From Candidatus Poribacteria bacterium (GTDB lineage Bacteria; Poribacteria; WGA-4E; JAJDTR01), in NCBI GenBank assembly GCA_965220415.1, contig OZ244829.1:2799483-2863482 (forward strand): a stretch of 64,000 nt of DNA. Reading direction: 5' to 3'. The position numbers were made by a program, and so were the translations under genes. Below are positions 7,414 to 51,404 of the stretch, piece by piece. How positions within the stretch are numbered: position 1 is the first letter of the stretch; each line of letters opens with the position of its first letter. A model generated the notes under the pieces. The model was not told where the DNA came from and did not search any database. It worked only from the letters and a program-made list of their open reading frames with translations.

Positions 7414-9447
7414 ATGAAATTCAAGAAACTTTCCTGCGCATTAACGGCTTCGCTAATGTTACACACCGCCATCGTGTTGCTTATTGGCGCCTATTGGGTG
7501 ACGAAAACCCCACAGCCGAATGATTCGATGAGCATAGAATTCCTTTCGCCATTCCCCCCTCCTAAACCGAAAATGCGGAAAGCCGAGATGCTACCCGCGT
7601 TCACGCCGAAAAAAATCATCCAAGTGAAGGTAGCCATTCCTCGCGGAGGACTGGCTATGGAGGACGCGATAGGCGCGCAGCCATCGCCGCCCAGTGCCCG
7701 AAGACCCATACTTCCAATGAAGGCAGTTTCCAATTACCAACCGTCTTCGGTATTGGAGTTTTCTTCAAAGGCGGTTCGCATAGATTCCCCGATTGCGATG
7801 AAAATTCCAAAACAGAATGATTCGAGGAACGTAGAAATCCTATCGCCAATCGCGCCTCCTCAACGGAGAGCCCTGACGCAATCTGAGTCCGAGCCGCAAA
7901 AAATCATCCAAGTGAAGGTAGCCGTTCCTCGCAAAGGACTGGCTATGGTGGATGCGATAGGCGCGCAGCCATTGCAGTCGACAACTTTTTCCGCGAAGTC
8001 GCGTGCATCGGCGGTGCCGCTGGAATCGCTCCATCGAATGGCTCCCCAACTCAAACCGCCAAACGCTGCCGCCTACCCGGATATGTACTTCAAGAGCAGC
8101 GGCGTCAATCCCTTCCTTGATACGGAGGACGAACACCTTTCTACCTTTGCGATGGATGTCGACACGGCGTCGTATTCGGTTACCCGCCGATACTTGACGG
8201 AGGGGCACCTGCCCCCGTCGGAAGCGGTGCGCGTCGAGGAGTTCGTCAACGCCTTCAAATACGACTATGCCGCACCGACCGAAGGCGCATTCGCCATCCA
8301 CCTTGAGGGCGCACCGTCAATATTTTCCGATAGCAAGCGTACCCATTTACTGAGAATCGGATTGAAGGGCCGCGTGATTCCCGACGAAGACCGGAAAGAC
8401 GCAACCCTTACCTTTGTGATTGACGTATCCGGCTCAATGGAAATGGAAAACCGTTTGGGGCTGGTGAAGAGGTCGTTGAGGCTGCTTGTGGATCAACTTC
8501 GACCTACCGACAGAGTGGGCATCGTTGTCTACGGCTCTCAAGGAAGGCTGGTGTTGCCGCACACGGCAGTCAACCGACGCGCCGAGATTTTGACAGCCAT
8601 CGATTCCCTGTATCCGGGTGGATCGACCAACGCCGAAGAGGGGTTGCGCATCGGGTACGACCTCGCTTGGCGTAACTCGGAGGTCGATCACATCAACCGC
8701 GTGATTCTTTGCTCGGACGGTGTCGCCAATGTCGGTCAAACGGGACCGGAAGAGATCCTGAAGGAGATACGCGCCCATGTCAAGCGCGGAATCACATTGT
8801 CGACCGTTGGCTTCGGTATGGGAAACTATAACGACATCCTCATGGAGAAACTTGCGAATGCGGGAAACGGGAACTACGCCTATGTTGACACACTCAGTGA
8901 GGCGAGGCGCATTTTCGTGGAAGATTTGACGGGGACGCTGCAGGTCATCGCCAAAGACGCCAAGATTCAGGTGGATTTCAATCCGGAGGTGGTTAGTCGA
9001 TTCCGCCTGCTCGGTTATGAAAACCGTCACCTCGAAAACCACCAGTTCCGCGATGACTCCGTTGACGCCGGCGAGGTTGGCTCGGGTCACTGCGTGACCG
9101 CGCTGTATGAGGTCAAGTTGCACGAGGGAGCGTCCGGAAAAATAGCGACCGCTTCGATTCGTTACGCCGATCCCGATAGCCAGAAAGTCACCGAAGTTGG
9201 AGAAGACATCTTTTCATCGGATCTGCGCGAGTCGTTTGAGACGGCTTCCGCGCCGTTTCGCCTCGCGGCAGCCGTGGCAGAATTCGCCGAAATCCTGCGG
9301 GAGAGCTACTGGGCAAAGGACGGAAGTTTCGAGGACGTGCGCCGAGTGGTCAAGGGTGTCTTCCCGGAATTCGACAACGAACAGGTTGTCGAGTTAATCT
9401 ACTTGCTCGGCAAAGCTATCGAATACAAGGCGCAACTTGATTCGTAG
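7414..9447 (+). CDS. Membrane-anchored von Willebrand factor type-A protein (YfbK-like vWA plus DUF3520-like C-terminal region)
   Basis: RBS ggagga upstream of ATG 7414. N-terminal TM helix, then a Pro-rich linker. vWA motifs: MIDAS DVSGSM, VVYGSQ, STNAEEGL, ILCSDGVANVG. Conserved C-terminal region follows. Confidence 0.8.
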   Translation: MKFKKLSCALTASLMLHTAIVLLIGAYWVTKTPQPNDSMSIEFLSPFPPPKPKMRKAEMLPAFTPKKIIQVKVAIPRGGLAMEDAIGAQPSPPSARRPILPMKAVSNYQPSSVLEFSSKAVRIDSPIAMKIPKQNDSRNVEILSPIAPPQRRALTQSESEPQKIIQVKVAVPRKGLAMVDAIGAQPLQSTTFSAKSRASAVPLESLHRMAPQLKPPNAAAYPDMYFKSSGVNPFLDTEDEHLSTFAMDVDTASYSVTRRYLTEGHLPPSEAVRVEEFVNAFKYDYAAPTEGAFAIHLEGAPSIFSDSKRTHLLRIGLKGRVIPDEDRKDATLTFVIDVSGSMEMENRLGLVKRSLRLLVDQLRPTDRVGIVVYGSQGRLVLPHTAVNRRAEILTAIDSLYPGGSTNAEEGLRIGYDLAWRNSEVDHINRVILCSDGVANVGQTGPEEILKEIRAHVKRGITLSTVGFGMGNYNDILMEKLANAGNGNYAYVDTLSEARRIFVEDLTGTLQVIAKDAKIQVDFNPEVVSRFRLLGYENRHLENHQFRDDSVDAGEVGSGHCVTALYEVKLHEGASGKIATASIRYADPDSQKVTEVGEDIFSSDLRESFETASAPFRLAAAVAEFAEILRESYWAKDGSFEDVRRVVKGVFPEFDNEQVVELIYLLGKAIEYKAQLDS

Positions 9448-9532
9448 GCGAATCGAGGCTATCGTGAGATATGATGAAGGAAGTGGTTCTCTGGGTAGGT
9501 GTTTAGCGCAAGTTTCACCTGTGGGATTTGCT

Positions 9533-9720
9533 ATGGGATTTCTATCGCATTCGCTATCAAGATCTCTATCGCGCTTCCTATCCAGTCGCTTGATCTCATT
9601 TGATCCCGCTCTGGGGCTTAAATCTAGAGTGTTACTATACACCGTCCGCGCCGGTGGCGCTTTTAGAGGCTGGTAAGATCTCTATCGCCCTACTTAATCA
9701 GTCGGTTGATCGCACCCTAC
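9533..9720. repeat. REP family-2 cluster (multiple units)
   Basis: Contains gggatttctatcgcattcgctatcaagatctctatcgcgcttcctatccagtcgcttgatc, then a second copy ending cgcaccctac. Confidence 0.7.
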
Positions 9721-9763
9721 AAATGTACTTTTCAAACAGGTTCTTAAACTTGGAGGACACATT

Positions 9764-11662
9764 ATGAAATTCAAGAAACTGTCGGTCGCTTTATTGGCTT
9801 CGTTGATGACACACACCGCCATCGTGTTGCTTTTTGGCGCCTATTGGGTGACGAAAACCCCACAGCCGGATGATACGATCACTGTTGCATTTTTGTCGGG
9901 ACAGGCTCCCCCGAAACAAAAAATGCGGAAACCTGCCATAGCGGGCAGGGTTTCGGCAATTGGAACGCAGCCATCGCCGCACGCGGAACGCAGACCTCCC
10001 GTTGCGATGAAGGCGGTTTCCAATTACCAGCCAACGTCAGTGTTAGAGTTTTCCTCAAAGGTGGCACGCGTAGATTCCCCGATAGCGATGCGCGTAGACT
10101 CCTTGACGGGTTCACCGGCACCAACACCGGGAGCATCGAGATCGGATAATAACGCACCTTCCAACCTCAAACCACAGACCAGTTCAACACCCACAAATAT
10201 GGTCGCCGCGATGAATCGCGTATCGGCCGATGGACAGCAAGCCGCCTATCGACACGCTCCTCGACTGAAACCGCCAAACGCTGCCGCCTACCCGGATATG
10301 TACTTCAAGGGCAGCGGCGTCAATCCCTTCCTTGATACGGAGGACGAACACCTTTCAACCTTTGCGATGGATGTCGATACCGCCTCCTATTCGGTTGCAC
10401 GCCGGTACTTGGCGGAGGGGCATCTGCCCCCGTCTGAGGCGGTTCGCGTCGAGGAGTTCGTCAACGCCTTCAAATACGACTATGCCGCACCGACCGATGG
10501 CGCATTCGCTATCCATCTTGAGAGCGCGCCGTCAATATTTGCGGATAGCAAGCGTACCCACCTACTGAGAATCGGATTGAAGGGCCGCGTGATTCCCGAC
10601 GAGAATCGAAAAGACGCAATGCTTACCTTTGTGATTGACGTGTCCGGCTCAATGGAAATGGAAAACCGTTTGGGGCTGGTGAAGAGGGCGTTGAGGCTGC
10701 TGGTGGATCAACTTCGACCCACCGACAGCGTGGGCATCGTCGTCTACGGCTCTCAAGGAAGGCTGCTGTTGCCGCACACGGCAGTCAACCGAAGAGCCGA
10801 GATCTTGACAGCCATCGATTCCCTGTATCCGGATGGATCGACCAACGCCGAAGAGGGATTGCGCATCGGGTATGACCTCGCTTGGCGTAACTCGGAGGTC
10901 GATCACATCAACCGCGTGATTCTTTGCTCGGACGGTGTCGCCAATGTCGGTCAAACGGGACCGGAAGAGATCCTGAAGGAGATACGCGCCCATGTCAAGC
11001 GCGGAATCACATTGTCGACCGTCGGCTTCGGTATGGGAAACTATAACGACATCCTCATGGAGAAACTAGCGAACGCGGGGAACGGGAACTACGCCTATGT
11101 TGACACACTCAGCGAGGCGAGGCGCATCTTTGTCGAAGATCTGACGGGGACGTTGCAGGTCATCGCGAAAGACGCAAAGATTCAGGTGGATTTCAATCCG
11201 GATGTGGTTAGTCGATTCCGGTTGCTGGGCTATGAGAACCGATACCTCGAAAACCACCAGTTCCGCGATGATACCGTTGACGCCGGGGAGGTCGGCTCGG
11301 GGCACTGCGTGACCGCGCTGTATGAGGTCAAGTTGCACGAGGGAGCGTCCGGCAAAATCGCGACTGCCTCGATCCGTTACGCCGATCCGGATAGCCAGAA
11401 AGTCACCGAAGTTGGAGAAGACATCTTCTCATCGGATCTGCGCGAGTCGTTCGAGACGGCTTCCGCGCCGTTTCGCCTCACGGCAGCCGTGGCAGAATTC
11501 GCCGAGATCCTGCGGGAGAGCTACTGGGCAAAGGACGGAAGTTTCGAGGACGTGCGCCGGGTGGTCAAGGGTGTCTTTCCGGAATTCGACAACGAACAGG
11601 TTGTGGAATTGATTTACTTGGTCGGCAAAGCTATCGAGTACAAGGCACAGCATGATTCGTAG
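9764..11662 (+). CDS. Membrane-anchored vWA protein, tandem paralog of 7414-9447
   Basis: Identical start context ggaggacacattATGaaattcaagaaact. vWA and C-terminal regions about 90% identical to the upstream copy, with a divergent linker. Confidence 0.8.
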   Translation: MKFKKLSVALLASLMTHTAIVLLFGAYWVTKTPQPDDTITVAFLSGQAPPKQKMRKPAIAGRVSAIGTQPSPHAERRPPVAMKAVSNYQPTSVLEFSSKVARVDSPIAMRVDSLTGSPAPTPGASRSDNNAPSNLKPQTSSTPTNMVAAMNRVSADGQQAAYRHAPRLKPPNAAAYPDMYFKGSGVNPFLDTEDEHLSTFAMDVDTASYSVARRYLAEGHLPPSEAVRVEEFVNAFKYDYAAPTDGAFAIHLESAPSIFADSKRTHLLRIGLKGRVIPDENRKDAMLTFVIDVSGSMEMENRLGLVKRALRLLVDQLRPTDSVGIVVYGSQGRLLLPHTAVNRRAEILTAIDSLYPDGSTNAEEGLRIGYDLAWRNSEVDHINRVILCSDGVANVGQTGPEEILKEIRAHVKRGITLSTVGFGMGNYNDILMEKLANAGNGNYAYVDTLSEARRIFVEDLTGTLQVIAKDAKIQVDFNPDVVSRFRLLGYENRYLENHQFRDDTVDAGEVGSGHCVTALYEVKLHEGASGKIATASIRYADPDSQKVTEVGEDIFSSDLRESFETASAPFRLTAAVAEFAEILRESYWAKDGSFEDVRRVVKGVFPEFDNEQVVELIYLVGKAIEYKAQHDS

Positions 11663-27144: not shown

Positions 27145-28062
27145 ATGGCAGGACTGGAAACACGTAGGATGGGGCGCACCGAGATGATGCCCGCATCGCT
27201 TGGACTCGGCGCTGCATGGCTGGGTCAAGGCTCGGAACACGAGACGATAGAAGGGATTCATCGTGCGATTGATTTGGGCATCAACTACATCGACACCTAC
27301 CCCAGAGGGCAGGAAGATCGCTGGGGAAAAGCGTTGGAGGGCGGCTTGCGCCAAAAGGTCTACCTGCAAGCCAAGGTCAGTCCGCTTGAGAAAGACGGCA
27401 AGAAAGACTTCTCCGCTGCGACGACCCGCCGCAGCGTGGAGAATAGCCTCAAATACCTCAAGACGGACTATCTGGATTCCGTGTTAATTCACGATGCCAT
27501 CGACATTGAAGATCCGCTCGCTCCCGGTCATGCTCTGGACGAGCTGATAAAGATGAAAGAGGAGGGGTTCATCCGACACCTCGGTCTCGGCGTGCGTCAA
27601 CACGAGTTTCATCGACGCGCCATCGAAACCGGACATATCGACATTGTACTCACCTTTTTGGACTACACCCTGCTTGACCAATCGGTTGCGGAAACCACGC
27701 TTCCTCTGGCGCGGGAACATGATGTCGGAATAATCCTCGCCAGCCCGATGGCGATGGGCACACTCACCGGCGTGGAGCCGAATCAGGAGGATGAACTCCG
27801 CCGCGCGAGAAAAGAAAACCTGGACGCCAAGCCGCAAGCGCACGATATGTGGAAGTGGTGTCAAGCGCGGGGCGTGAACATCCGTCACTTGGCGGTGCAG
27901 TTCTGCCTCGCCGCACCGGTTGACGGCATTGTCATGTTCGGTCCAGCGGACAAACGCGAGGTCGAGGAGGGCTATGAAGCCGCCACCGCAGATGTGCCGC
28001 CCGAAATCTGGCACGACTTTGAAGCGGAATTCGGCGTCACCGCCCTCCACGAACTACGGTAG
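27145..28062 (+). CDS. Aldo/keto reductase family oxidoreductase
   Basis: AKR N-terminal region (RRMGRTEM...LGLGAAWLG). IDTYPRGQ and HDAIDIEDP motifs. Its stop codon TAG lies inside the first REP GTAGG. Confidence 0.85.
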   Translation: MAGLETRRMGRTEMMPASLGLGAAWLGQGSEHETIEGIHRAIDLGINYIDTYPRGQEDRWGKALEGGLRQKVYLQAKVSPLEKDGKKDFSAATTRRSVENSLKYLKTDYLDSVLIHDAIDIEDPLAPGHALDELIKMKEEGFIRHLGLGVRQHEFHRRAIETGHIDIVLTFLDYTLLDQSVAETTLPLAREHDVGIILASPMAMGTLTGVEPNQEDELRRARKENLDAKPQAHDMWKWCQARGVNIRHLAVQFCLAAPVDGIVMFGPADKREVEEGYEAATADVPPEIWHDFEAEFGVTALHELR

Positions 28063-28370
28063 GAGCGATTTCCAAATCGCGACATATCAACGGGAATTGA
28101 AGCGTCGGGAATCGGAATTCCCTCCTACAAAAGCGATTGTCTTTGCCGAAAGCAAATTCACACTTCCACGAACTACGGTAGGAGCGATCTCCGAATCGCG
28201 ACATATCGGCAGGAATTGGCGTGTCGGGAATCGGAATTCCCTCCTACAAAAGCGATTGTCTTTGCCGAAAGCAAATTCACACTTCCACGAACTACGGTAG
28301 GAGCGATCTCCGAATCGCGACATATCGGCAGGAGTTGGCGTGTCGGGAATCGGAGTTCCCTCCTACTGCA
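28048..28370. repeat. BIME-like tandem array of ~120-bp units, each holding two inverted REP family-1 hairpins (downstream side of the RAYT gene)
   Basis: About 2.7 copies of cacgaactacGGTAGGAGCGATCTCCGAATCGCGAC...GTCGGGAATCGGAATTCCCTCCTAC...aaattcacacttc. Confidence 0.85.
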
Positions 28371-28959: not shown

Positions 28960-29400
28960 GGAGGAATCTCTATCGTTCTCGTTATCCTATCGGTTGATCC
29001 CTCGTACACGCGCTTTTGGTAGGAGCGATCTCCGAATCGCGACAGATTAGCGGGAACTGGAAAGTCGGGAATCGGAATTCCCTCCTACGGGAGATTTTTG
29101 TGTGTGTCAAACGTAATTTTCAAATCCGCAAACCACGGTAGGAGCGATCTCCAAATCGCGACATATCAACGGGAACTGGAGAGTCGGGAATCGGAATTCC
29201 CTCCTACGGGAAGTTTTTGTTTGTTGCCAAACGTAATTTGCACGTCCGCAAACCACGGTGGGAGCGATCTCCGAATCGCGACGCATTGGCGGGAATGGAA
29301 GCGTCGCGATTCGGAGGGGAATCTCTATCGTGGTCGCTGTTCGCTCCCTTAATCCCTCTTACATCAATCGCGGTGCAATCGCTTGATGGAAAGGTATTTC
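28960..29400. repeat. Composite REP array (one family-2 unit plus three family-1 REP pairs) on the upstream side of the RAYT gene
   Basis: ggtaggagcgatctccgaatcgcgac...gtcgggaatcggaattccctcctac is repeated three times at ~120-bp spacing, with family-2 units at both ends. Confidence 0.8.
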
Positions 29401-38807: not shown

Positions 38808-40343
38808 TTACCGACTGAGGAATGTGAAACTGTACAGTTTGCTCCGATTCATCACGAACCGAAGTTTCACCTCTCCCTCGATTCTTGAGATATCCCCGGC
38901 TCTCCATTTGACCTGCCACCGCAACTCATCGCCGCTCAACGGAAGACAATCCTCCCGAGAAAAACCGTCCAACACTCGTCCATCCGCCCCGTAAAGTTCG
39001 ACTCGCACCTGCCCGCCTGCGGCATTCGCGTTCACTTCCAATCCAGCCGCATCCTCAGGCAGAGGGACAGTCTTTGTCGTGACCTCAGCGTCGTCCTGTG
39101 CGCTCAGCGCGACGAACCGGTGGCGTTTCCACGTGGCGCGCGCCAAACGCTTCACCCGTTTTTCCATGTTGACTTCGCCGTGCGTGTGCTCGCAGCCGGT
39201 GTAGTACCAGTGCACGTCGTCTCCATCGATTATCGGTTCCTTGGCAGTTCCGATAATCATGCCCCGGTCGAAGGCGTCCCCCTCCCCGCGCGGGATGACC
39301 GCTGTCCGCTCCCGGTCGGCGTGCGCCCAATTTATCCCGTCGCGGCTGCACACGATTTGCGAATCGATTGGCCCATCGCACGGCACCTGATTCCTCTGAC
39401 CGGAAATCTGCTCCGCCGTCACATACAAGGCGCCCACCAAGCCGAGATACAGGTTGTTGTACCGAAAACCGGACAGATTGTGAAATTCGGCACGTAACGC
39501 GCCGTATCTGCGGTGCCCAATCTCATCGTCCCAGTGCGTCGGCTCCAGCATAGGCAGCGAGTCCTTCCATGGTCCTTCGAGGGAGGGACTTTCGGTGTAG
39601 CAAATCACTCGGCGTTTGTCCTTGTCATCGAACCGCATAATCGAATACGCCCGAAAAATTTGGCTGTGGGGATCCCAAATCACATTGAACGTGCCCTCGT
39701 TCCCTCGATCCGAGACAGGCTCTATGTTGTCCTTGTCGTCCCAGTGGATGCCGTCCGGCGAGGTGATAAGGAAGATGTTGCGGTAGCGCCGGCAAAACCC
39801 GATAGCTTTGTATCTCTTGTTCGGATCCGCCTCCTCCCGATCGATAAACACCGATGCGCCGTGGAGATCCCAGATGATGTTGTTGTCGGGACTGCCGTCG
39901 AAGGTGAAGATGCCGAGATTCGGTTTGACCCAGTTGATTCCGTCATCGCTCTCCGCATAACACGTCAGGTCGCCCCGGTCGTTGTCCACAAAGGCTCGCC
40001 CATATTTGTCGTGTGTCACGCCGTTGCAGTTGTGCGGTTTCTCGTCGGTACGCGGCACGTACAAGCCCGGAATCTGATAGTTTCCCGCCGCCTCGCGCCA
40101 ATGCGGTCCCATCCGGGCGAAGTACCACATCCGGTATTTCCCCATGAGATCGTCGTAAAGCGTCGTGCCGTAGAGGTGGATGCGTTTGCTCATCCCGGGT
40201 CCGCAATACTCCCACGGCTTGTCCTTGTCTGGCTCCATGAGAATACCACTCTTCTTCCCGGGATGCACCTCTCTTTGAATGCCGCTCTCGGCGTCAATCA
40301 GTGCTTCGTCAAGCAGCAGCATACTCTCGTCAATTGACATCAA
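38808..40343 (-). CDS. Beta-propeller glycoside-hydrolase-like protein (paralog B, about 85% identical to paralog A)
   Basis: Collinear with 36960-38501, including the C-terminal KLYSFTF tail. Confidence 0.55.
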   Translation of the reverse strand: MMSIDESMLLLDEALIDAESGIQREVHPGKKSGILMEPDKDKPWEYCGPGMSKRIHLYGTTLYDDLMGKYRMWYFARMGPHWREAAGNYQIPGLYVPRTDEKPHNCNGVTHDKYGRAFVDNDRGDLTCYAESDDGINWVKPNLGIFTFDGSPDNNIIWDLHGASVFIDREEADPNKRYKAIGFCRRYRNIFLITSPDGIHWDDKDNIEPVSDRGNEGTFNVIWDPHSQIFRAYSIMRFDDKDKRRVICYTESPSLEGPWKDSLPMLEPTHWDDEIGHRRYGALRAEFHNLSGFRYNNLYLGLVGALYVTAEQISGQRNQVPCDGPIDSQIVCSRDGINWAHADRERTAVIPRGEGDAFDRGMIIGTAKEPIIDGDDVHWYYTGCEHTHGEVNMEKRVKRLARATWKRHRFVALSAQDDAEVTTKTVPLPEDAAGLEVNANAAGGQVRVELYGADGRVLDGFSREDCLPLSGDELRWQVKWRAGDISRIEGEVKLRFVMNRSKLYSFTFLSR

Positions 40344-42561: not shown

Positions 42562-43986
42562 TTACGTGCTTAAATCAAACCCGAACGAATACAATTTTGC
42601 GCCGTTCATGCTGAACTCAACGCGCAACTCTTCATTCTCCACAGAACCAAGCGAAAAACCGTTCCGCCACGCGGCAACCCCGTCCGTAACTGTCTCCTCT
42701 ATCGGCTCGCTCTCGGCGACCAGCCCGTCGTCGGCTTTATTCAAAAAGCGCACCTTCACCGACCCGACGCCGTAAACATCCGCGCTCAGGTGAAGTTCGC
42801 TTCCCGTGATCGCCATCGGCTTGGTGGTGACAACCGCGGGCACTTTGGCAGAGATTTGCTCGTATCCCGCGAACCCGTCCGGGCGCAGCCGAGCCAAGCA
42901 GAGAAACCCGTCACGCCAGCCGAAATGCAGCCAGTTGCTCGCGCCGTAGTAGAGACGGATCTCGTTTTCAAGGATGATTGGGTAGGCGGACGAATAGGCG
43001 CACCCCCAGTCGTACGTTCCCACCTCATCGCTGTTCGGTATGAGCGGCGATCCCGGACACACAAAACTCCAGTTAATCGTGTCGGGACTCCACGCCAACT
43101 CCGTCCACGCCCTGTCCGTCCGTTGGTTGTGGATGACCGGCAGCCCAAGATACACGTTCCCATGGCGGAAGACCGGCATGGAGTATATTTGCAAGTTCTC
43201 GTCCACTCCCTGCATGACCGCAGTGGCCTGCGTCCAATTGACAAAATCCTTGCTCCCAGTCCGTCCCACCTGCCGCGGCGGCCACGCGCCGTGAAGCGCC
43301 ATCACCTCCTTTGGACCATCGTCGCACGGGTCGCGCATCCGTGTGAACCCGGCATACTCCCCCAACTCCTCGACCCACAGGACATTATAATGCGTGCCGT
43401 CAACCCGATAGGGGTTAATCGTCGGGCACAAGGTTGACGGCGTCCACCTAACTCCGTCTGGCGAGAACGAGACACCCAACCCCTTCCGTCCGCACGAGGT
43501 GAGTATCTTGTAGCGCTTCGCCGGATCCGGTTCACGATCCTCCTTCAAAACGCCCGATCCGTGCACGGTGCGGATGACGAGATTATTCTCCGTGCTCCGG
43601 TCAAATTCGACGAGCCCGAGTTCCGGCTTGTCCCACACGATTCCGTCATCGGAGGTGGCATAGCACAATCCCATCTCCCTACCCTTCGGAGGGTTGTACT
43701 CCCTCCGCTGCCGCTCCGCCAAGCCGATGTCCTTGGCTGGAAGATCGGAGATGAAAGGGCTGTACCAGCATTTGTATAACCCTTCTTCCCGGTCATACAT
43801 CACATTCGGGTACAGGTTGTCGAACCGTTGCTCCCACGGCTTATCCTCGCCGAAGAGAGGATTGCGCGTATCCTTCTCCGTCGGCGAAACGACCAGCTTC
43901 GCATTCTTCGCCCTCTCCGTGATGCGCGTGTCTAGTAATAGGTGTCTGCTACCCAATTCGACCTCCGCTCCAAATACATTCTTCAA
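42562..43986 (-). CDS. Beta-propeller glycoside-hydrolase-like protein (distant paralog C of 36960/38808)
   Basis: Shares motifs WYSPF, CYATSDDGIVW, PAKRYKIL and FSPDGVRW. C-terminal KLYSFGF tail. Confidence 0.55.
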   Translation of the reverse strand: MKNVFGAEVELGSRHLLLDTRITERAKNAKLVVSPTEKDTRNPLFGEDKPWEQRFDNLYPNVMYDREEGLYKCWYSPFISDLPAKDIGLAERQRREYNPPKGREMGLCYATSDDGIVWDKPELGLVEFDRSTENNLVIRTVHGSGVLKEDREPDPAKRYKILTSCGRKGLGVSFSPDGVRWTPSTLCPTINPYRVDGTHYNVLWVEELGEYAGFTRMRDPCDDGPKEVMALHGAWPPRQVGRTGSKDFVNWTQATAVMQGVDENLQIYSMPVFRHGNVYLGLPVIHNQRTDRAWTELAWSPDTINWSFVCPGSPLIPNSDEVGTYDWGCAYSSAYPIILENEIRLYYGASNWLHFGWRDGFLCLARLRPDGFAGYEQISAKVPAVVTTKPMAITGSELHLSADVYGVGSVKVRFLNKADDGLVAESEPIEETVTDGVAAWRNGFSLGSVENEELRVEFSMNGAKLYSFGFDLST

Positions 43987-44055
43987 TCATGAAATAATAA
44001 GTCTGCTGGCGACAATCTCTCGATTGTTCATCTGCTAATTGTCCGTCAACTTACA

Positions 44056-44076
44056 GGGCTGTCGGTGAAGGTGTTG
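44056..44076. repeat. Conserved 21-nt element GGGCTGTCGGTGAAGGTGTTG, 3' of nuclease gene 1
   Basis: Identical copy at 46338-46358, 3' of nuclease gene 2. Confidence 0.6.
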
Positions 44077-44112
44077 GCAGTTCTGAAATCCATCTTGGGT
44101 AACTACCACGAT

Positions 44113-44637
44113 TTATCGTTTCGCTCTGATTGAGGCAGTCGTGAAGGATCTCAGGCTTCTTTTTAAGGCGCTCGCTAAGTTTTTAGGGTCATCGCAGCGC
44201 GCTGTTTCAATAGTCATGGGGGTGCCGCCGAAGTTGACCTTTTTGACGTTAAGCACTTTGAACTGTTTCTTGTGCATACCTCGATCGTGGATTAGGACGG
44301 GTAGACAACAAATGGGGGATGGAACTTCCGGAGCAAAACGACTGACAAAATCAGCGCCTCGTTGCAATTGCTCAAACGCCTCGGATGTGTCGACACTGCC
44401 GCTCTTAAGTTCAATCGGAACGGTAATTAACATGTCCTCCGCGATATTCATGAAAAAGAGGATGCAGTCACATCGCTTGCCTTCAATCTTATGACTCGGG
44501 AATGCCTTATTTGCGTCAACGATAACTCGAGGGAAAGGCACACCGTCCATTGATGCTTTGCACCCACTTTCCTCACACGAATCACAAAGGTTTTCTTGTC
44601 TCACTCTGGTCCGAATCTCTTCAAGAATCTCATTCAC
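44113..44637 (-). CDS. Small zinc-ribbon protein with a putative PD-(D/E)xK nuclease motif (partner of ATPase 44630-46225)
   Basis: The track ORF extends to 44709. The GTG at 44637 gives an N-terminus collinear with paralog 46390-46854 and the overlap GTGAATGA with the ATPase stop. Cys cluster CDSCEESGC. Candidate PD-(D/E)xK residues: D in KRCDCILF, then ITVPIELK. Confidence 0.5.
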   Translation of the reverse strand: MNEILEEIRTRVRQENLCDSCEESGCKASMDGVPFPRVIVDANKAFPSHKIEGKRCDCILFFMNIAEDMLITVPIELKSGSVDTSEAFEQLQRGADFVSRFAPEVPSPICCLPVLIHDRGMHKKQFKVLNVKKVNFGGTPMTIETARCDDPKNLASALKRSLRSFTTASIRAKR

Positions 44638-46225
44638 CCCGGTATTTCGCTCCTGCCGCTGTTTCCGCGAGTTGGTTCTGCAGGCCTGCCGACCGTTTGT
44701 AAAGTTCATCAGCTACATCTTCGTATTCTCTAGGTTCCACCCCTTCGATGCGGTCAAACGGGATTTCCTCCACCGTTGAGCCCGCGGAGGATCTATCCTT
44801 GCGGAACAACCAAACTCCCACGTCGTTCCGCTGGAGCGAACTTGGAAGGGGTTGCTCGTTGATGGGCTCACCGATCTTTTCTTCCAACTCCCCTTCACGT
44901 ATCAGGTTTCCAATTTCCATAAGCAACCAGTCGCTGTGTGTCGTAACCACTACCTGCACCCCGGCACGCACCAAACGCCCCAGCGTCTTCGCCATCTCGG
45001 TCTGGGCAGCGGGATGAAGATGCGCTTCCGGCTCTTCAATGATGAGCATATCGCCGCGGGAAATGGTGCTGCGAAGGAGTAGCACAACAGGGGCGAGTTC
45101 CGACACCATGGACGACGCACGAGCCAAGCGGATATTCTCCTCCGTTTTCTGTGGCCGATATACGAAGTCTGGATACCCGCCTGCTGAGGCTCTGTTGGTT
45201 TGGATCTGCCCGTCAAGCACCTCGCGTTCAAGTGTATTGGCCAGGTCCTTCATGAGATTGTCGGATACAAGTTTCTCTTCGTAAAGGATAAGTTGCTGCA
45301 GGAAATCTGCCATTACGCCAGAGAACGTCGGGACTTCCGGAAAGCCTTCCAGCCCAACGCGAGTGGCACGTGCCACAAGCGAACTCGCGATGACGCGATG
45401 GCTCTGCATGATTCCGCTTCGGGCCGCTGGTAGGTAATGTGCTGTCCCTTGTCCGTTTACGGCACCGACAGCGATCAAGAGGTGCAAAACGAAGTCTTCA
45501 AATATGGCCCCACCGTCCGACGATGCGTTGTCTTCCAACTTTTCTCGTATCGACTCCCGAACGTGGTTGGTGACCCACTGGTGTTTTGAATCTGACCATG
45601 TTGCAGGAAGGAGGTCCATATTCTCAATACTCCCATTCGTGGTGATACGCGATTCTGAAATGTCCATGTGCAAATGCCAGAGAGGTTGTCCTCCTTTGGC
45701 CGCAGCCAGTGCCAATTTCATCTTGTCGGAGTGCCTTGTTAATCGAAACAGATCCACTATTGACTCAAGATCAAAACAGCGCTTAAGTTCGGCCTGCAGA
45801 AGCGTACCCCACAACTTCGGATCCTTGTGCGCAGACTGCCAGATGTCGCGCATGCCTAGAGGTAGATCTGAAAAACAAAATGGCCGTCCCTCCACATCTA
45901 GTTTAGTAAGAACATCATGGAACTCTTCCTTTCGCACGTTGATGTCCTTCATTGACGCTTTAGCATGTCTGAAGCGCCGCCAAAGGTGAAATCGATGGTC
46001 CTCTACAATTGGAAGCAGTGAGAATCCATTGAGAATTTTGTGCAATGCGTATATCAACGTGGCAAAATAAGTCTTACCGGTGTTGCTCGGACCGACGAAC
46101 ACAGTCAGCGGCCTCAGGTCTATACTGCCATTCACGATAGGGCCGAAATCCTCCGCCGAAATCCGAACGTTTGGAAGTGTCGAAATCTGCGTTCCCCTAG
46201 TCTTGGTATTCCTACCAGTTTTCAT
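44630..46225 (-). CDS. ABC-type AAA_15/AAA_21-family ATPase (Septu PtuA / PARIS AriA-like defense ATPase)
   Basis: RBS gggag upstream. N-terminus NFGPIV..DLRPLTVFVGPSNTGKTY (Walker A). C-terminal Walker B/D-loop LIIEEPEAHLHP and H-loop VVTTHS. Confidence 0.75.
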   Translation of the reverse strand: MKTGRNTKTRGTQISTLPNVRISAEDFGPIVNGSIDLRPLTVFVGPSNTGKTYFATLIYALHKILNGFSLLPIVEDHRFHLWRRFRHAKASMKDINVRKEEFHDVLTKLDVEGRPFCFSDLPLGMRDIWQSAHKDPKLWGTLLQAELKRCFDLESIVDLFRLTRHSDKMKLALAAAKGGQPLWHLHMDISESRITTNGSIENMDLLPATWSDSKHQWVTNHVRESIREKLEDNASSDGGAIFEDFVLHLLIAVGAVNGQGTAHYLPAARSGIMQSHRVIASSLVARATRVGLEGFPEVPTFSGVMADFLQQLILYEEKLVSDNLMKDLANTLEREVLDGQIQTNRASAGGYPDFVYRPQKTEENIRLARASSMVSELAPVVLLLRSTISRGDMLIIEEPEAHLHPAAQTEMAKTLGRLVRAGVQVVVTTHSDWLLMEIGNLIREGELEEKIGEPINEQPLPSSLQRNDVGVWLFRKDRSSAGSTVEEIPFDRIEGVEPREYEDVADELYKRSAGLQNQLAETAAGAKYRGE

Positions 46226-46337
46226 TGTGAGTCTCCCGTTTTTGAGCGAGTCTTCAGCAGTAACATTTTCTCCTGATGTATTTGAAGATTAATGGCCGTG
46301 GTTGTCACTTTTTTCTACTCTTGCCCGGCAGCTTGAT

Positions 46338-46358
46338 GGGGCTGTCGGTGAAGGTGTT
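46338..46358. repeat. Conserved 21-nt element GGGCTGTCGGTGAAGGTGTTG, 3' of nuclease gene 2
   Basis: Identical to 44056-44076. Confidence 0.6.
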
Positions 46359-46389
46359 GAAAACTCAAAAGTCCAAGAGTCTTAGGGAG

Positions 46390-46854
46390 CTAGAGGTCTT
46401 TCTCCAAACTTATTACGCGTTCACGCAAGAGAATAAACTCCCGGTGTTGCCGAAACTTTACTCTATTCCTCTTTTCCCTGAAAGAAATCACCTCAGCCCG
46501 CCTGAATTGACCGTCGTAGACTGCAACGGGTTTGAATTTAACCTTTACGCCGTTGGGAACAATCTTTTCCGCAACGGAGGCGCCAGCGCGAAGTTGTGAC
46601 ACAATCTTACTTGCCTTGGGTCTGCCCTTCAATTCGATGGGTACAACCCAATCGTCGCCGCTGCACTCGCCGATGAAGAGAAAATCACAGTGTTCTCGAT
46701 CCTTTGGAGCCGGCGATTTCGAACAATCCATGTTAATAACGACGAATAAACACGGATTGTTTGGGAGGCCTACTTTGCACTGTCTGTTTTCACACTTGGT
46801 CGTGAGACATTCCTCCGAGACCCTAGCGCGGACGGCGTTTGCGAGACTGCTCAT
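46390..46854 (-). CDS. Small zinc-ribbon protein with a putative PD-(D/E)xK nuclease motif (partner of ATPase 46851-48401)
   Basis: ATGA start/stop overlap with the upstream ATPase. N-terminus RARVSEECLTTKCENRQCK aligns with nuclease 1. Candidate PD-(D/E)xK residues: D in HCDFLF, then VVPIELK. Confidence 0.5.
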   Translation of the reverse strand: MSSLANAVRARVSEECLTTKCENRQCKVGLPNNPCLFVVINMDCSKSPAPKDREHCDFLFIGECSGDDWVVPIELKGRPKASKIVSQLRAGASVAEKIVPNGVKVKFKPVAVYDGQFRRAEVISFREKRNRVKFRQHREFILLRERVISLEKDL

Positions 46855-48401
46855 TCGCCTTCCCTTTTATCCGTGAGGCTTGTCATCTCGGCCCACCGGT
46901 TGTAGTTATTGACAGCGACCTTGTCATAGCCGGCAGCAAAGGTTCCCGATTCCCGATTCAGCGGAATCTCCTCCACGACTGAACCCTTGGGGCGTTTCTT
47001 GGGCCGGAACAACCATGCTCCCACCTCATTCTCGTTGAGTGCGATGTCACTACTGTTGATTTCTTTCCGCTGGGTTTTAGTTAATGCCGAGGCTTGGACC
47101 AGATTGGCGAGTTCCTCAAGCACCCACTCGCTATGGGTTGTCATGATTACCCTAATACCTGACCTCACAGCGGTCGCTAGAATGCGTGTGAACTCGACCT
47201 GCATTTCTGGGTGCAGGTGCGATTCCGGCTCCTCAATAATTAGGACGTCACCTTTCCGGACAACATGACGCAGGTACAACACCACCGGTGCTAACTCGGA
47301 AACCATTGACGAGGTGCGCATCATCGGCAGACTTTCCTTCCAACCGCGCGGACGATAGAAAAAGGATGAATAGGGAGTCTCCAGTTTCGCCCTTTCTTCA
47401 TGATGCACAGCACCTCCGAGTAGCGTTTTTTCGAGGTGGGATGCAAGGTGTTCACTGCGTCGACGTCGATCGCGCGGTAGATCGTCCAACGCTATCAGTT
47501 GCTCCAAGAAATCAGCTAAGACACCGGAGAGCATCGGTACTGGCGACGCCGATCGGATGCCGGCACTTGCCGCGCGTTCGACTAGAGCGCTGACTACCAC
47601 CCGATGTGCGTGCATCACTCCCGCACGGTCCGCAGGGAGGTAATGAGCGGGGGAACCTACTGGACCGACGATATAAGGGAAAACGGCGTCTATGAGTGTC
47701 TTAGGCAGTATGACTCCCACATGTCCTTCTATCGCGGAACTGGTATACTCCCAATCCATTTCGTAGACATCGCTACCATAATATAGCGGCCGTTCTGCGT
47801 GCATTGATGTCGAAAGACGAGTTGCGCCTCCCTTGGATAGGTCGAGTTTGTAGACAAAGAGGTTTTCTCTTTCCCTCTTTGTTCCCACGTATCTGCGAAG
47901 AGAAACCTGTGCGGCGGTTGTACCGGGACTACGAACCAACTGGCCAGGTGATTGAAGACCGAAACAACGGGAGATTTCATCTCGAGCAATCTCGTCCGAA
48001 ACACCCTCGGTGTCAAACAGAGGTCGAACTAAAGCAGCAACGCTTTCCGGCATTGCATACCAAAGTCTGCGTTGGCCTCGTGCCGGTCTTTCCTCGTTGA
48101 ATAATCCGTGTACCCATTCAGTCAATTCTCCGAGGCCTTTACTTGAGGACAGTATCCGCTCCTTCCGCGGACTTCTCCATACGTGAGGTGGATAGCGTTC
48201 AAAGGCACTGTGTCGCCAAGAAGGCCGCCTCGTCGCTGACCCACCAAATAAGCGATGCAACGCATAAATCATTATGGCAAGATACGATTTGCCAGTGTTG
48301 CTCGGGCCAACGAACAGTGTAAATGGCCGCAAGTCAACATTAGCTTCAACGATAGGACCGAAATTCGTCACCTCTATTTCAAGGGCGTCTGAAATTTTCA
48401 T
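46851..48401 (-). CDS. ABC-type AAA_15/AAA_21-family ATPase, paralog of 44630-46225 (about 60-65% identity)
   Basis: NFGPIVEANVDLRPFTLFVGPSNTGKSY. C-terminal LIIEEPESHLHP...VIMTTHS. Confidence 0.75.
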   Translation of the reverse strand: MKISDALEIEVTNFGPIVEANVDLRPFTLFVGPSNTGKSYLAIMIYALHRLFGGSATRRPSWRHSAFERYPPHVWRSPRKERILSSSKGLGELTEWVHGLFNEERPARGQRRLWYAMPESVAALVRPLFDTEGVSDEIARDEISRCFGLQSPGQLVRSPGTTAAQVSLRRYVGTKRERENLFVYKLDLSKGGATRLSTSMHAERPLYYGSDVYEMDWEYTSSAIEGHVGVILPKTLIDAVFPYIVGPVGSPAHYLPADRAGVMHAHRVVVSALVERAASAGIRSASPVPMLSGVLADFLEQLIALDDLPRDRRRRSEHLASHLEKTLLGGAVHHEERAKLETPYSSFFYRPRGWKESLPMMRTSSMVSELAPVVLYLRHVVRKGDVLIIEEPESHLHPEMQVEFTRILATAVRSGIRVIMTTHSEWVLEELANLVQASALTKTQRKEINSSDIALNENEVGAWLFRPKKRPKGSVVEEIPLNRESGTFAAGYDKVAVNNYNRWAEMTSLTDKREGE

Positions 48402-48500
48402 GGTTTATGCCTCGTATTGTATCTGCCCATTGTCATTGTTTGTTCACACTCGTGATATATGAAACACCCATGCAATATCAAGTTCTAACTGATAATGGAC

Positions 48501-49682
48501 TTACACTGCAACAGGAGGTCGCGATTCGGAGATCGCTCCTACATGCTCGGGAGCCGGTCGTCCGCCAAGCTCATTCTTCTCCCAGAGTTGACCGAGGCTA
48601 TAATCCTCAAGCCAATTCTTCAGTTTCTCTCCATCCAGTCTGGTAAATTGCGTTGCTCCCTCCACGCGTTCAGTCACGAGCACATCTTCCGGCTCGAAAT
48701 GATCCAAGAGCAAGGAAGACTGAGTGGCGACGACAATCTGGGTATCCACGGAAACCTGCTTGATGAGGGCGGCAAGAATCGTGATTGCGGCGGGATGCAA
48801 TCCCAACTCCGGCTCGTCCAATAGAATCACCGAAGGGCGCAATTCTCTCGGTTGCAGCAATAATGTCGCTAAAGCGATAAACCGAAGCGAACCGTCAGAT
48901 AGTGACGCGGCATCAAAATAGTTGTCTGACCCCCGATGACGCCATTCAAGCCGAATCGTATCCTCGTTCAGCACACGCGGCTCTAAGAAAAAGTCGTCGA
49001 AAAACGGCGCAACGAGTTGTACCGTGCGTCGTATCATGTTGTACGAATCACCGTGTATTTCACGCAGATGATACAGGAATGCTGCGAGATTTGAGCTGTC
49101 GTGCCGCAAGAAACGATTGTCGTTTAGTGCCGTAGTTTTCTTTACGGGTGACGACGCGCTTGTGTCGTGGAAGTGGTACACTCGCCATTGAAGAAGGTGT
49201 TCTCGAACGTAAGGAATTGCGCTGGATTTGTCCTTTGAGTTGTAAATACCCGCCTCGCCGCCCCGCCCGCCGATCCCGTAATCTGTCGAATCGAATCCTT
49301 CGAAAATCTGCTCCTGTTTAACCGAAGTTCTAACCCCCTCACTAGAAGGAATTAATCTCTCCTTTGACGGAAACATGCCATCGGCATCGTTCGGCGCCAA
49401 CACTATATTGTACTCTCGCTTTTCATTCTCAAAACTGATTCCAAGATTTAGAAACTGAGTTTTCTTTGAACCGAAGTGAAGTATCTTGTCAGCACCGCCG
49501 GCCCTCATGACATAGTCTCGAAGTCCTCCTAAGCGCATAGCGTTAAGGAACGAGAAAACCTCCATGAAGTTCGACTTTCCGGCGCCGTTCGCACCAATCA
49601 AGACGTTGATTGGAAGGAGTTCCACGTCAGCAGATTTGATGCTCTTAAATCCTTTTACGGTAATCCAGTCAAGTGTAGACAT
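48501..49682 (-). CDS. AAA_21-type ATP-binding protein (OLD/AbiLi-like), standalone
   Basis: RBS gagagg upstream of ATG 49682. Walker A LIGANGAGKSN. Walker B ILLDEPELGLHP. The last ~12 codons run through a REP family-1 copy (...GAISESRP...). Confidence 0.75.
   Translation of the reverse strand: MSTLDWITVKGFKSIKSADVELLPINVLIGANGAGKSNFMEVFSFLNAMRLGGLRDYVMRAGGADKILHFGSKKTQFLNLGISFENEKREYNIVLAPNDADGMFPSKERLIPSSEGVRTSVKQEQIFEGFDSTDYGIGGRGGEAGIYNSKDKSSAIPYVREHLLQWRVYHFHDTSASSPVKKTTALNDNRFLRHDSSNLAAFLYHLREIHGDSYNMIRRTVQLVAPFFDDFFLEPRVLNEDTIRLEWRHRGSDNYFDAASLSDGSLRFIALATLLLQPRELRPSVILLDEPELGLHPAAITILAALIKQVSVDTQIVVATQSSLLLDHFEPEDVLVTERVEGATQFTRLDGEKLKNWLEDYSLGQLWEKNELGGRPAPEHVGAISESRPPVAV
48518..48542. 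repeat. REP family-1 element embedded in the 3' end of ATPase gene 48501-49682
   Basis: Sequence gtcgcgattcggagatcgctcctac. Confidence 0.7.
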
Positions 49683-49784
49683 GGTAACCTCTCTATTCCC
49701 CAGCGCAATCGCCCCCGAGTCTAGAGGTGTAAAAATCTGCAATTATCAAATCGAATATGGAATCCTCTTTGCTCCCGACAGGAA

Positions 49785-49809
49785 GTCGCGACCTGGAGAT
49801 CGCTCCTAC
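49785..49809. repeat. REP family-1 element between the sulfatase stop and the ATPase-3 start
   Basis: Sequence gtcgcgacctggagatcgctcctac. Its CTAC (GTAG on the minus strand) provides the sulfatase TAG stop. Confidence 0.7.
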
Positions 49810-51404
49810 ATTTCCGGCTTCTCCCGCGACTCCAGAATATCCTTCCACGGCTGAACATGGCATCGATCCGTCCAATCATCGTGCAGCCCCCTCAACTCTT
49901 CGACGATGTCCGGACACTTACCGCTTAAATCTTCCAACTCGGTGCGGTCAGCTTCCATATCGTACAGTTCCCAATCGCCCGGATACTTCATGACCAGCTT
50001 CCAATTCTCCCGCCGCACCGCTTTGTTCCCCTCGTGCTCCCAATACAGCACACCTTTGCCGTTGTCCCGGTTATCGAAAACGGGCACCAAACTCGTGCCC
50101 TCCAGCGGATAAACCGGATTCCCATCGTTCTCTTTGGGATACGCCGCGCCAGAGACCTCGAGACACGTCGCCATCACGTCCGTCAACTGCCCCGGCTGAT
50201 GCCGAAACTCGCCCGCCGATGTAATGCGCTCGGGCCAATGCGCGATTAAAGGCGTGCTGATGCCGCCCTCATGCACCCAGTGCTTGTATTCGCGGAACGG
50301 CGTATTTGACAGGTTCGCCCACGGCACGCCGTAGCTTTGATACGTGGTTTCCGGTCCCGGCATAATCGCCGGGTCGTTGCCCTTACTGACCGGTGTCCCG
50401 TCGCGCGTCAATGGCGGTGAGACGGGACGATCTCGCCCGGTACGCGTGTTGGGCCCGCCCAACTCTTCGGCGCACCCACCGTTATCCGCCAAAAAAAGAA
50501 TCAGCGTGTTATCCCGTTGACCCGTGGCTTTCAACGTGCTGATGATCCGTCCAATCCCCTGATCCATGCGATCAATCTGCGCCGCGTACACTTCCATCCG
50601 CCGCTGATTCCATTCTTTGTGTTGCGCGTCTCCCCAAGGTGGCTGTGACGGATCCCGATCACTTAATTCCCAGCAATCCTCCAAGATTCCCATCTCCCGC
50701 ATACGCAGCAGGCGTTCCTCGCGCAGCGCATCCCAGCCGGCGGAGAACCGACCCTCATAACGCGCGATATCCTCCTCATGCGCATGCAGCGGCCAATGCG
50801 GCGACGTATAAGCGACATACGTGAAGAAGGGGTCGTCGGGCGATTTCGCATGATGGTCTCGGATGAAACCGGATGCTTCATCGCTAATCGCATCGGTCAA
50901 GAAGAAGCCGTCCGCGAGGTCGTCGTGCAAAACATGATCGTTGTCCCGCGTGAGCGTATGCGGCTGCCAGTAATTAGCACCGCCGCCGCGGAGACCGAAA
51001 TACCGGCCAAAACCCCGCTGGCACGGCCAGCTATGCTTTGGGCCTTCCGCCCCCAAGTGGCGCGAAATATGCCACTTGCCGCTCATATAGGTGCGATAAC
51101 CCGACCCTCCAAGCGCCTCGGCAATCGTCACGCAGCGATGATTCAAATCCCCGCGATAACCCTCCAATCCGTCGTCAACCATCATGTGTCCGACACCGGT
51201 TTGGTGAGGGTGCAACCCGGTCAACAACGACGCGCGCGACGGACAGCAACGCGCCGTGTTGTAGAACTGCGTGAATCGCAGTCCGCCGTTCGCCAGCTTG
51301 TCAAGGTTCGGCGTCCGCACCTCGCCGCCGTAGCAGCCGAGGTCGGAATAGCCCATGTCATCGTTCAGAATCAGCAGAATATTCGGTCGCTTCTCTTCGC
51401 TCAT
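49806..51404 (-). CDS. Arylsulfatase (formylglycine-dependent sulfatase family)
   Basis: Sulfatase signature CCPSRASLLTGLHPHQTG (C-x-P-x-R). N-terminal NILLILNDDMGYSDLGCYG. 532 aa. Confidence 0.9.
   Translation of the reverse strand: MSEEKRPNILLILNDDMGYSDLGCYGGEVRTPNLDKLANGGLRFTQFYNTARCCPSRASLLTGLHPHQTGVGHMMVDDGLEGYRGDLNHRCVTIAEALGGSGYRTYMSGKWHISRHLGAEGPKHSWPCQRGFGRYFGLRGGGANYWQPHTLTRDNDHVLHDDLADGFFLTDAISDEASGFIRDHHAKSPDDPFFTYVAYTSPHWPLHAHEEDIARYEGRFSAGWDALREERLLRMREMGILEDCWELSDRDPSQPPWGDAQHKEWNQRRMEVYAAQIDRMDQGIGRIISTLKATGQRDNTLILFLADNGGCAEELGGPNTRTGRDRPVSPPLTRDGTPVSKGNDPAIMPGPETTYQSYGVPWANLSNTPFREYKHWVHEGGISTPLIAHWPERITSAGEFRHQPGQLTDVMATCLEVSGAAYPKENDGNPVYPLEGTSLVPVFDNRDNGKGVLYWEHEGNKAVRRENWKLVMKYPGDWELYDMEADRTELEDLSGKCPDIVEELRGLHDDWTDRCHVQPWKDILESREKPEM

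Follow-up and report, generated by a model that had tools for sequence, protein, structure and literature searches.

The stretch considered here is a 64,000-nucleotide (nt) window of Candidatus Poribacteria bacterium (contig OZ244829.1; positions are those of the window unless a locus label precedes them), and it holds an island of five co-oriented genes on the minus strand. An earlier note on this DNA had placed the five genes, and both our open reading frame (ORF) calls and the public gene calls, which give identical boundaries (393, 516, 154, 531 and 174 amino acids [aa]), bear out those positions. From 5' to 3' they are ATPase-3 (48501-49682; 393 aa from its ATG), an AAA_21 ABC ATPase that is an orphan HEC-01A; ATPase-2 (46851-48401; 516 aa) and small protein 2 (46390-46854; 154 aa), here called cassette 2; and ATPase-1 (44630-46225; 531 aa) and small protein 1 (44113-44637; 174 aa, with a GTG start), called cassette 1. 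The cassette ATPases are ABC ATPases of SMC-head-like predicted fold, which we propose as sensors or regulators, and the small proteins are Cys-rich, PD-(D/E)xK-like putative nucleases. Within each cassette the overlaps of translational coupling are present in the sequence as described: the small protein 2 start overlaps the ATPase-2 stop by 4 nt (ATGA), and the small protein 1 start overlaps the ATPase-1 stop by 8 nt (GTGAATGA); MNEIL is the start of small protein 1 homologues too. We consider it likely that candidate anti-phage modules are clustered in this chromosomal region, namely two cassettes of a PD-T4-4/PDC-M47 branch and an orphan HEC-01A, with the anti-phage function suggested by homology only.

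The cassette ATPases carry the ABC/SMC-like hallmarks that had been read from them, since both contain a Walker A motif (FVGPSNTGK[ST]), a Walker B motif (LIIEEPE.HLHP) and TTHS, and Pfam finds AAA_15 and AAA_21 in both. Among the PADLOC models, PD-T4-4_A ranks best, followed by PDC-M47A, NsnB and AriA: the PD-T4-4_A model PDLC04033 matches two stretches, with an expectation value (E) of 1.2e-37 for ATPase-2 and 1.2e-35 for the other cassette ATPase, and PDC-M47A matches at 1.1e-29 and 1e-25, respectively. The NCBIfam models for PtuA, RecF, SMC and Rad50 score these ATPases far under their cut-offs. An AlphaFold2 model of ATPase-1 (pLDDT [the predicted local distance difference test] 75.6; predicted template-modelling score [pTM] 0.80) has no long coiled coil, and the solved structures nearest to it are the SMC head (18.7), Rad50 (18.1) and Septu PtuA (18.1), then retron PtuA (17.9), GajA (14.3) and AriA (13.8); no solved structure of a close ATPase relative was found by sequence. 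In total, ATPase-1 and ATPase-2 are defence-type ABC ATPases whose modelled fold is SMC/Rad50/PtuA-like, and the likeness to anti-phage ATPases that had been claimed for them holds. The two share 34% identity with each other (E 8e-87), and the small proteins share 30% over 96 aa (E 1e-8). Thus, the tandem duplication is old, as the earlier note had supposed, and far older than was implied by its figure of 60-65% protein identity, which has to be given up.

Named families say little about the small proteins. Pfam and NCBIfam return nothing beyond weak HSDR_N matches, and a search of Protein Data Bank sequences with small-protein profiles gave nothing meaningful, the best being a myosin heavy chain kinase at E 0.06-0.3. 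HNH, DUF4435 and TOPRIM have no match in them in Pfam or PADLOC, which agrees with the view that the partners are neither HNH nor TOPRIM proteins. Word-indexed searches found 47 and 30 clusters for the two small proteins, all unnamed or "hypothetical," and when 1.84 billion representatives were searched with a profile, 1,573 clusters (defined at 50% identity) came up at E ≤1e-3, of which 963 reached E ≤1e-10, with nearly all of the 150 matches listed being full-length, at about 155 aa. The N-terminal Cys cluster and the spaced D...VPIELK motif that had been noticed are seen as C21/C26 and RCD...(19 aa)...VPIELK. Scored across 114 diverse family members, E76 and C26 are kept in all 114, C56 in 113, D57 and Q90 in 112 each, D43 and C148 in 107, D41 and K78 in 106, and C21 in 82. 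D57, E76 and K78 are kept in both small proteins of the window; small protein 2 also has the equivalent of Q90, and it has R at the C148 position. For small protein 1, structure prediction gave a confident model (pLDDT 89.7; pTM 0.87) with a restriction-endonuclease-like alpha/beta core in which D57 stands just before strand 58-64 and E76-x-K78 lies in strand 69-78, so that the three residues fall at strands 2 and 3. PD-(D/E)xK nucleases dominate the structural-neighbour lists; the Foldseek neighbours are EcoO109I, Can2, MunI, HamA, MspJI and the Cas4-like ACE1, none of them significant (best E 0.017; TM score ≤0.39). The PD-(D/E)xK assignment therefore comes from a consistent fold class and motif with no close structural match, and on this basis the small proteins are putative nucleases with the kind of core that the earlier note had proposed.

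To which known system do the cassettes belong? PD-T4-4, found in E. coli ECOR58 and given as "ATPase, nuclease," is validated per Table S1 of Vassallo 2022 (PMC9519451); it is characterized as the combination of a P-loop NTPase and a PD-(D/E)xK nuclease (PMC10952713; bioRxiv 10.1101/2025.07.10.664194), and its proteins form higher-order complexes (bioRxiv 10.1101/2025.07.10.664194). Searches of phages and plasmids with tblastn gave only partial matches, at 29-46% identity, but through one of them a true PD-T4-4 pair was found: on the 4.8-kb E. coli plasmid pSCU-105-5 (NZ_CP051743.1), the gene of a 462-aa ATPase precedes that of a 198-aa protein, and PADLOC models identify these two proteins as bona fide PD-T4-4_A (3e-123) and PD-T4-4_B (1e-43). 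Based on the near-full-length hhalign alignment of the window ATPase family with this PD-T4-4_A (99.5%, E 1e-22, 429 columns, 26% identity), the cassette ATPases are remote but full-length PD-T4-4_A homologues. On the nuclease side, where PADLOC was run on every family member individually, PDC-M47B models are matched by 60 of 67 members at E ≤1 and by 56 of 114 at E ≤0.01 (best 2e-8), and the three PD-T4-4_B models match 4, 1 and 1 of the 114 relatives at E ≤0.01 (best 3e-5). With hhalign, the small-protein family aligns with the true PD-T4-4_B over the core only (E 4.7e-4, probability 32%), pairing RCDyLf...VPiELK.G...QLQ with SCDLVIV...VVLDLKSK...QIE, and it aligns similarly with a PD-T4-4_B-type protein of Bernardetia (E 3.4e-4). 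The latter is the 206-aa B protein that accompanies an ATPase on plasmid NZ_CP147018.1 (L089:3110-5119; L numbers are our locus labels), and it matches both PD-T4-4_B (1e-12) and PDC-M47B (7e-10). Because this one pair matches both sets of models, PD-T4-4 and PDC-M47 look like one continuous family. PDC-M47 is an untested candidate of PADLOC-DB v2 with genes A and B, and the literature searched contained no mention of it.

We read the window cassettes as a third, distant branch of a single PD-T4-4/PDC-M47 superfamily, one that would stand out in that its ATPase is longer and its nuclease is shorter and rich in Cys. Like PD-T4-4, each cassette is an operon of two genes in which the small protein directly follows the ATPase, the co-oriented A-then-B order also found in pSCU-105-5; the partner has a CD...(E/D)LK core in the corresponding place, and the sizes are comparable (516-531 plus 154-174 aa in the window, 462 plus 198 aa in the plasmid). 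Unlike PD-T4-4, the window ATPases are 55-70 aa longer and match the PD-T4-4_A model in two stretches only; the nuclease is shorter and has the Cys cluster C21/C26/C56/C148, whereas the two PD-T4-4_B-type proteins compared, from E. coli and Bernardetia, lack both the N-terminal CxxxxC and the C-terminal cysteine; and the hosts are Poribacteria, Latescibacterota and other metagenome-assembled genomes (MAGs) rather than enterobacterial mobile elements. PDC-M47 resembles the cassettes in its ATPase (PDC-M47A matches at 1e-25 to 1e-29) and differs in that the window small proteins align only to the catalytic core of PDC-M47B. The earlier note had called the effector partner unusual; that view falls, in that an ABC ATPase with a small PD-(D/E)xK nuclease is the composition already known from PD-T4-4, both window genes look like remote homologues of its components and of those of PDC-M47, and the window pair is a candidate branch of that architecture.

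Other ATPase-nuclease systems were compared as well, and by their own definitions the window cassettes belong to none of Septu, PARIS and Gabija. The Septu partner is an HNH protein, and the NCBIfam PtuA model NF041760 reaches 19-25 bits against a cut-off of 500. In PARIS the effector is a TOPRIM/DUF4435 protein; the window ATPases match AriA partially, and no AriB match was found. HEC-02 likewise joins an ABC ATPase to a nuclease of the PD-(D/E)xK class (NERD), and HEC-02A matches at 1e-13 to 1e-15, but the window partner has no NERD match. In Gabija the TOPRIM domain is fused to the ATPase, whereas the window has no TOPRIM and, as described below, only stumps of helicase genes; PADLOC GajA models match the window ATPases only around Walker B. 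The likeness to Gabija lies in some relatives of the cassette, in which a GajB-like UvrD helicase is the third gene.

The pairing of the two cassette genes is well conserved. With the ATPase alignment and one genome per species, we found at least 537 stretches in species-representative genomes that encode a relative of the ATPase; the locus counts that follow refer to the best 80 species-level loci among them. These come mostly from Candidatus Poribacteria MAGs, the others being MAGs of Latescibacterota, Caldilineaceae, Acidobacteriota, Nitrospirales, Spirochaetia and Alpha- and Gammaproteobacteria, and several genomes have two or more ATPase copies. An intact ORF of the small-protein family lies directly 3' of the ATPase in 76 of the 80, so that the ATPase-small protein pair is kept nearly throughout; the exceptions include one contig end, one pseudogene and one apparent insertion sequence (IS) transposase in place of the small gene. 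The last, at L009:9747-10940, is a transposase-like ORF judged from its sequence. L067, which lacks the small gene, has there a convergent 227-aa ORF (9420-10103, minus strand) with a D…(x18)…ECK motif. Tandem cassettes also occur in L058 and L062, and in one Poribacteria MAG the two small-protein types stand on separate contigs.

The company that the cassette keeps is mixed. A scan of two genes on either side at 40 loci gave 126 neighbouring proteins, among which are 6-7 N6_N4/Type III methylases, 4-5 HEC-01A-like ATPases and at least one IetA; metabolic families, namely GFO_IDH_MocA, Laminin_G_3, DUF1611, AP_endonuc_2 and PhyH, are equally common. At one Poribacteria locus the cassette is surrounded by ThsB-TIR, a methylase, DUF4411/M78 and a UvrD helicase; at L004 it stands among repair and housekeeping genes (DNA ligase, HhH-GPD, AP endonuclease). 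Defence genes seem to us to turn up near the cassette more often than chance would give, a judgement made without a background rate. Thus, the idea of a conserved pair enriched beside defence genes fares well in its first part and only partly in its second: methylases, HEC-01, IetA and ThsB-TIR recur, but metabolic families are as frequent. In the same way, the claim of a defence-island context stands insofar as defence genes recur near relatives and does not stand for the position itself, which is vertically conserved, chromosomal and among metabolic genes; this is no classic mobile defence island.

All five genes are under purifying selection, judging from a comparison of the window with loci L005 and L006. 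The ratio of nonsynonymous to synonymous substitutions (dN/dS) is 0.09-0.25 across the island, with 0.16-0.25 for small protein 2 and 0.18-0.22 for the partner-less ATPase-3, and it is 0.10-0.15 in the flanks (the sulfatase and a 464-474-aa flanking gene). For the cassette genes, dN and dS both lie above those of the flanks; for HEC-01A, dS is similar to that of the flanks. One ATPase has also recombined. At the cassette 2 position of L006 (6211-7707; the same in L007), the ATPase is a mosaic of types 1 and 2: alignment columns 1-60 and 421-563 are of type 2 (74-93% identical over columns 1-540; the short tail is still closer to type 2), and columns 61-420, the middle ~350 residues, are much closer to type 1. 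The type 2 ends amount to ~45 N-terminal and ~140 C-terminal residues. This pattern suggests domain shuffling between tandem paralogues, and it makes the termini, which stay with the nuclease type, a candidate nuclease-binding surface and the exchangeable middle a candidate sensor.

ATPase-3 is a different case. It matches HEC-01A over its full length (PADLOC PDLC04175, E 8.3e-137, positions 5-362 of 363; Pfam AAA_21, 6.5e-31) and shares only the Walker B region with ATPase-1. HEC-01 consists of an ABC ATPase and a TOPRIM (DUF4276) protein and gave no protection in a published test (Payne et al. 2024, bioRxiv 10.1101/2024.01.29.577857). L006 and L007, which are syntenic metagenome contigs, have the same order of sulfatase, HEC-01A, cassette 2 and cassette 1, and they carry in addition a 239-aa DUF4276 gene 3' of HEC-01A (L006:5234-5953), a HEC-01B at 6e-72, so that a complete pair (L006:4071-5953; the same in L007) is present. 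In the window, phmmer with the L006 DUF4276 protein found no HEC-01B among the ORFs, and only 99 nt separate ATPase-3 from ATPase-2; the gene is absent also from L005, which keeps the same five genes. Its position is occupied by a copy of a repetitive extragenic palindromic (REP) element (48511-48544, minus strand), which has rewritten the C terminus of ATPase-3: the last ~10 codons (…HVGAISESRPPVAV; 48501-48545) are encoded by the REP copy, and the protein, 80-82% identical to its syntenic counterparts in L005 and L006, differs from them at the C terminus. From these comparisons, ATPase-3 is evidently the ATPase component that is left of a separate HEC-01 system; the partner gene was deleted, and selection holds the ATPase intact. 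The third ATPase can thus no longer be regarded as a free-standing novelty. Complete HEC-01 pairs adjoin the cassette in four further species-level loci (L013:10196-12132, L019:10784-12588, L021:6064-7895 and L055:6261-7633); the loci with HEC-01 and cassette belong to Acidobacteriota, Latescibacterota, Poribacteria and Alphaproteobacteria MAGs, with HEC-01 either upstream or downstream.

The earlier note had the island bracketed by REP elements. True REP copies stand on either side of ATPase-3 only, and what had been taken for one at the 3' edge is left over from a helicase gene. The 21-mer CAACACCTTCACCGACAGCCC occurs exactly after both small genes, at 44056-44076 and 46339-46359. In L001, a Poribacteria MAG, a 689-aa UvrD-type helicase lies 41 nt 3' of the cassette (8551-10620; GajB models 2e-27), the coding sequence of which opens with MDFRIANTFTDSLAKLTGNEQKGAKTTAFDLQMNP; the corresponding reading in the window is MDFRTANTFTDSPVS* behind small protein 1 and LDF*VFNTFTDSPIKLPGKSRKK*QPRPLIFKYI behind small protein 2 (asterisks are stops). 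In DNA alignment, 46274-46376 (minus strand) is a UvrD-like helicase pseudogene stump of ~35 codons with in-frame stops that accounts for the greater part of the sequence separating the two cassettes, and L005 and L006 have independently decayed versions; a shorter stump at 44031-44093 (minus strand), 3' of small protein 1, contains the 21-mer. Since the stumps align to the helicase start, each cassette was once followed by such a helicase gene. Intact helicases of the L001 family stand directly after the cassette in L008 and L011 (L011:10184-12256) and 1.7-5 kb away in L013, L025 and L035, and none is nearby in at least 69 of the 80 loci, so the helicase would be an optional third gene. Where it is present, the arrangement of ATPase, putative PD-(D/E)xK nuclease and helicase is reminiscent of Gabija. 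Terminator, small RNA, attC-like site and micro-ORF were considered for the 21-mer and rejected, as it aligns to the helicase gene start; also dropped was a guess from the sequence that the helicase N terminus is RelE/ParE-like, residues 1-230 having no Pfam match. That the 21-mer is identical in both stumps, despite the 30-34% identity of the cassettes, may be due to gene conversion between the stumps, which is a guess.

How might such a cassette work? PARIS AriA holds and releases a nuclease (PMC11464382), and by analogy with the control of AriB by AriA, the cassette ATPase may combine sensing with control of the nuclease. We propose that an ATPase oligomer would bind the nuclease and hold it inactive, with contact probably made through the N-terminal strand and the C-terminal ~140 residues of the ATPase, the parts inherited with the nuclease type. 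The variable middle insert would sense an infection cue; an ATP-dependent rearrangement would then free or activate the nuclease; and the freed nuclease would cut nucleic acid (DNA, possibly tRNA or RNA), stopping the phage or the infected cell. The cassettes themselves descend from an old duplication and probably differ in specificity.

Several observations weigh against an anti-phage cluster of this kind. The small proteins of the window match PDC-M47B at E 0.003 and 0.029 only (positions 61-116 of 186), they have no PD-T4-4_B match in PADLOC at E ≤0.1, and hhalign probabilities to PD-T4-4_B-type proteins are just 32-38%. Small protein 2 is without the fourth conserved cysteine (C148), and the purified PD-T4-4 complex did not cleave DNA in vitro. 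The neighbours in the 40-locus census are mostly metabolic, the island is syntenic and vertically inherited in relatives, and no viral relatives were found in 2.9 million viral contigs. Finally, with both helicase genes and HEC-01B lost, the island could be partly decayed.

Some of these points would suit a housekeeping role in DNA repair or recombination, in which the cassettes would act, SbcCD-like, on the cell's own DNA. The SMC and Rad50 heads are the best structural matches, the island is chromosomal and syntenic between metabolic genes, viral contigs hold no relatives, and the repair enzymes around the cassette of L004 would be apt company. We nevertheless regard such a role as quite unlikely: the ATPase-1 model has no long coiled coil, RecF, SMC and Rad50 scores fall far below cut-offs where PD-T4-4_A homology runs full-length, and HEC-01, methylases and TIR genes recur beside the cassette. 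The pattern of evolution also speaks against it, as the family is found in MAGs of many phyla with mosaic recombination, several genomes have two or more copies, some in tandem, and the cassettes evolve faster than the flanks and have a lower G+C content (~0.51 for the island against 0.55-0.61).

Could the anti-phage cluster that we favour instead be a ruin, its remaining genes relics left after the loss of both helicases and the HEC-01B nuclease? Two helicase stumps with stop codons, the DUF4276 gene absent by comparison with L006/L007, the rewritten C terminus of ATPase-3 and the missing C148 of small protein 2 point that way, and loss of the small gene, by pseudogenization or IS replacement, is seen in L061 and L009. 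We give this little credence, in that none of the five ORFs is broken, their catalytic motifs are complete and their dN/dS is similar to that of the flanking housekeeping genes. Moreover, a helicase of the L001 family is missing from the vicinity in at least 69 of the 80 loci, which makes the two-gene unit the usual form, and L005 independently keeps the same five genes. It is also improbable that the island is one integrated multi-gene system, in which HEC-01A might, for instance, use the PD-(D/E)xK nucleases as its effectors. In favour of it, the window, L005 and L006/L007 all have the order HEC-01A, cassette 2, cassette 1, purifying selection acts on the orphan HEC-01A although it has no partner, complete HEC-01 pairs adjoin the cassette in several phyla and tandem cassettes recur in L058 and L062, but about 70 of the 80 loci have neither a nearby HEC-01 pair nor a second cassette, HEC-01 may lie upstream or downstream, the small-protein types can stand on separate contigs of one MAG, and ATPase-3 has only the Walker B region in common with ATPase-1.

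Returning to the cluster of candidate anti-phage modules, a bolder version can be put as questions. Does the Cys-cluster nuclease mark a mechanistically distinct system, in which the cysteines bind Zn or Fe-S and so gate the nuclease? Might the tandem cassettes and the partner-less HEC-01A act as one multi-sensor unit, with sensor inserts shuffled and effectors shared? And would the helicase-bearing relatives then be Gabija-like, with the nuclease in trans? We think it unlikely that this composite picture is right.

If functional, the cassettes would enlarge the ATPase-nuclease defence systems by a sizeable branch (1,573 nuclease clusters and at least 537 loci), one that the catalogues miss: Pfam has no family for it, and its nuclease scores under the PADLOC models. 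The mosaic ATPase with its matched termini offers a testable hint as to which part may hold the nuclease and which may sense. The Cys cluster provides a biochemical handle on the PD-T4-4 group, whose reference member is without a known substrate, and with selection acting on an orphan HEC-01A, one may ask what role such an ATPase has when it lacks its nuclease. The family is concentrated in uncultured lineages, with Poribacteria dominating and Latescibacterota, Caldilineaceae and others following. Going by their bin names, many of the hosts look like sponge or coral symbionts, and sponge microbiomes are described in one report as rich in defence genes (PMC5099237).

The surroundings of the island need fewer words. 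A look-up with ATPase-1 found a 6-kb metagenome scaffold that carries the same island, and promoter and terminator scans gave results at or below shuffle expectation. The REP core GTAGGAGCGATCTCC occurs in 13 copies in the window, against 0.09 expected, and near the island its cores flank ATPase-3 only (48528-48542 and 49795-49809), the second belonging to the copy between the sulfatase gene and ATPase-3 (49778-49811, minus strand). Elsewhere, tandem arrays of a 119-nt unit, in 2.5-2.7 copies, lie at 28046-28366 and 29018-29315, each unit holding a REP core and an inverted partner (…CCCTCCTAC); single copies are at 282, 48528, 49795, 51532, 54804 and 57760, and the string VGAISESRP of the ATPase-3 tail recurs in a spurious ORF over the copy at 51532. 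As for the genes that had been named on either side, Pfam supports the sulfatase upstream and gives no support for the glycoside-hydrolase-like label of the downstream 474-aa gene. Two flanking proteins of ~470-510 aa on the minus strand (42562-43986 and 38808-40343) have no Pfam match and share, by eye, the motifs …WYF/WYSPF… and …SDDGI.W.KP….

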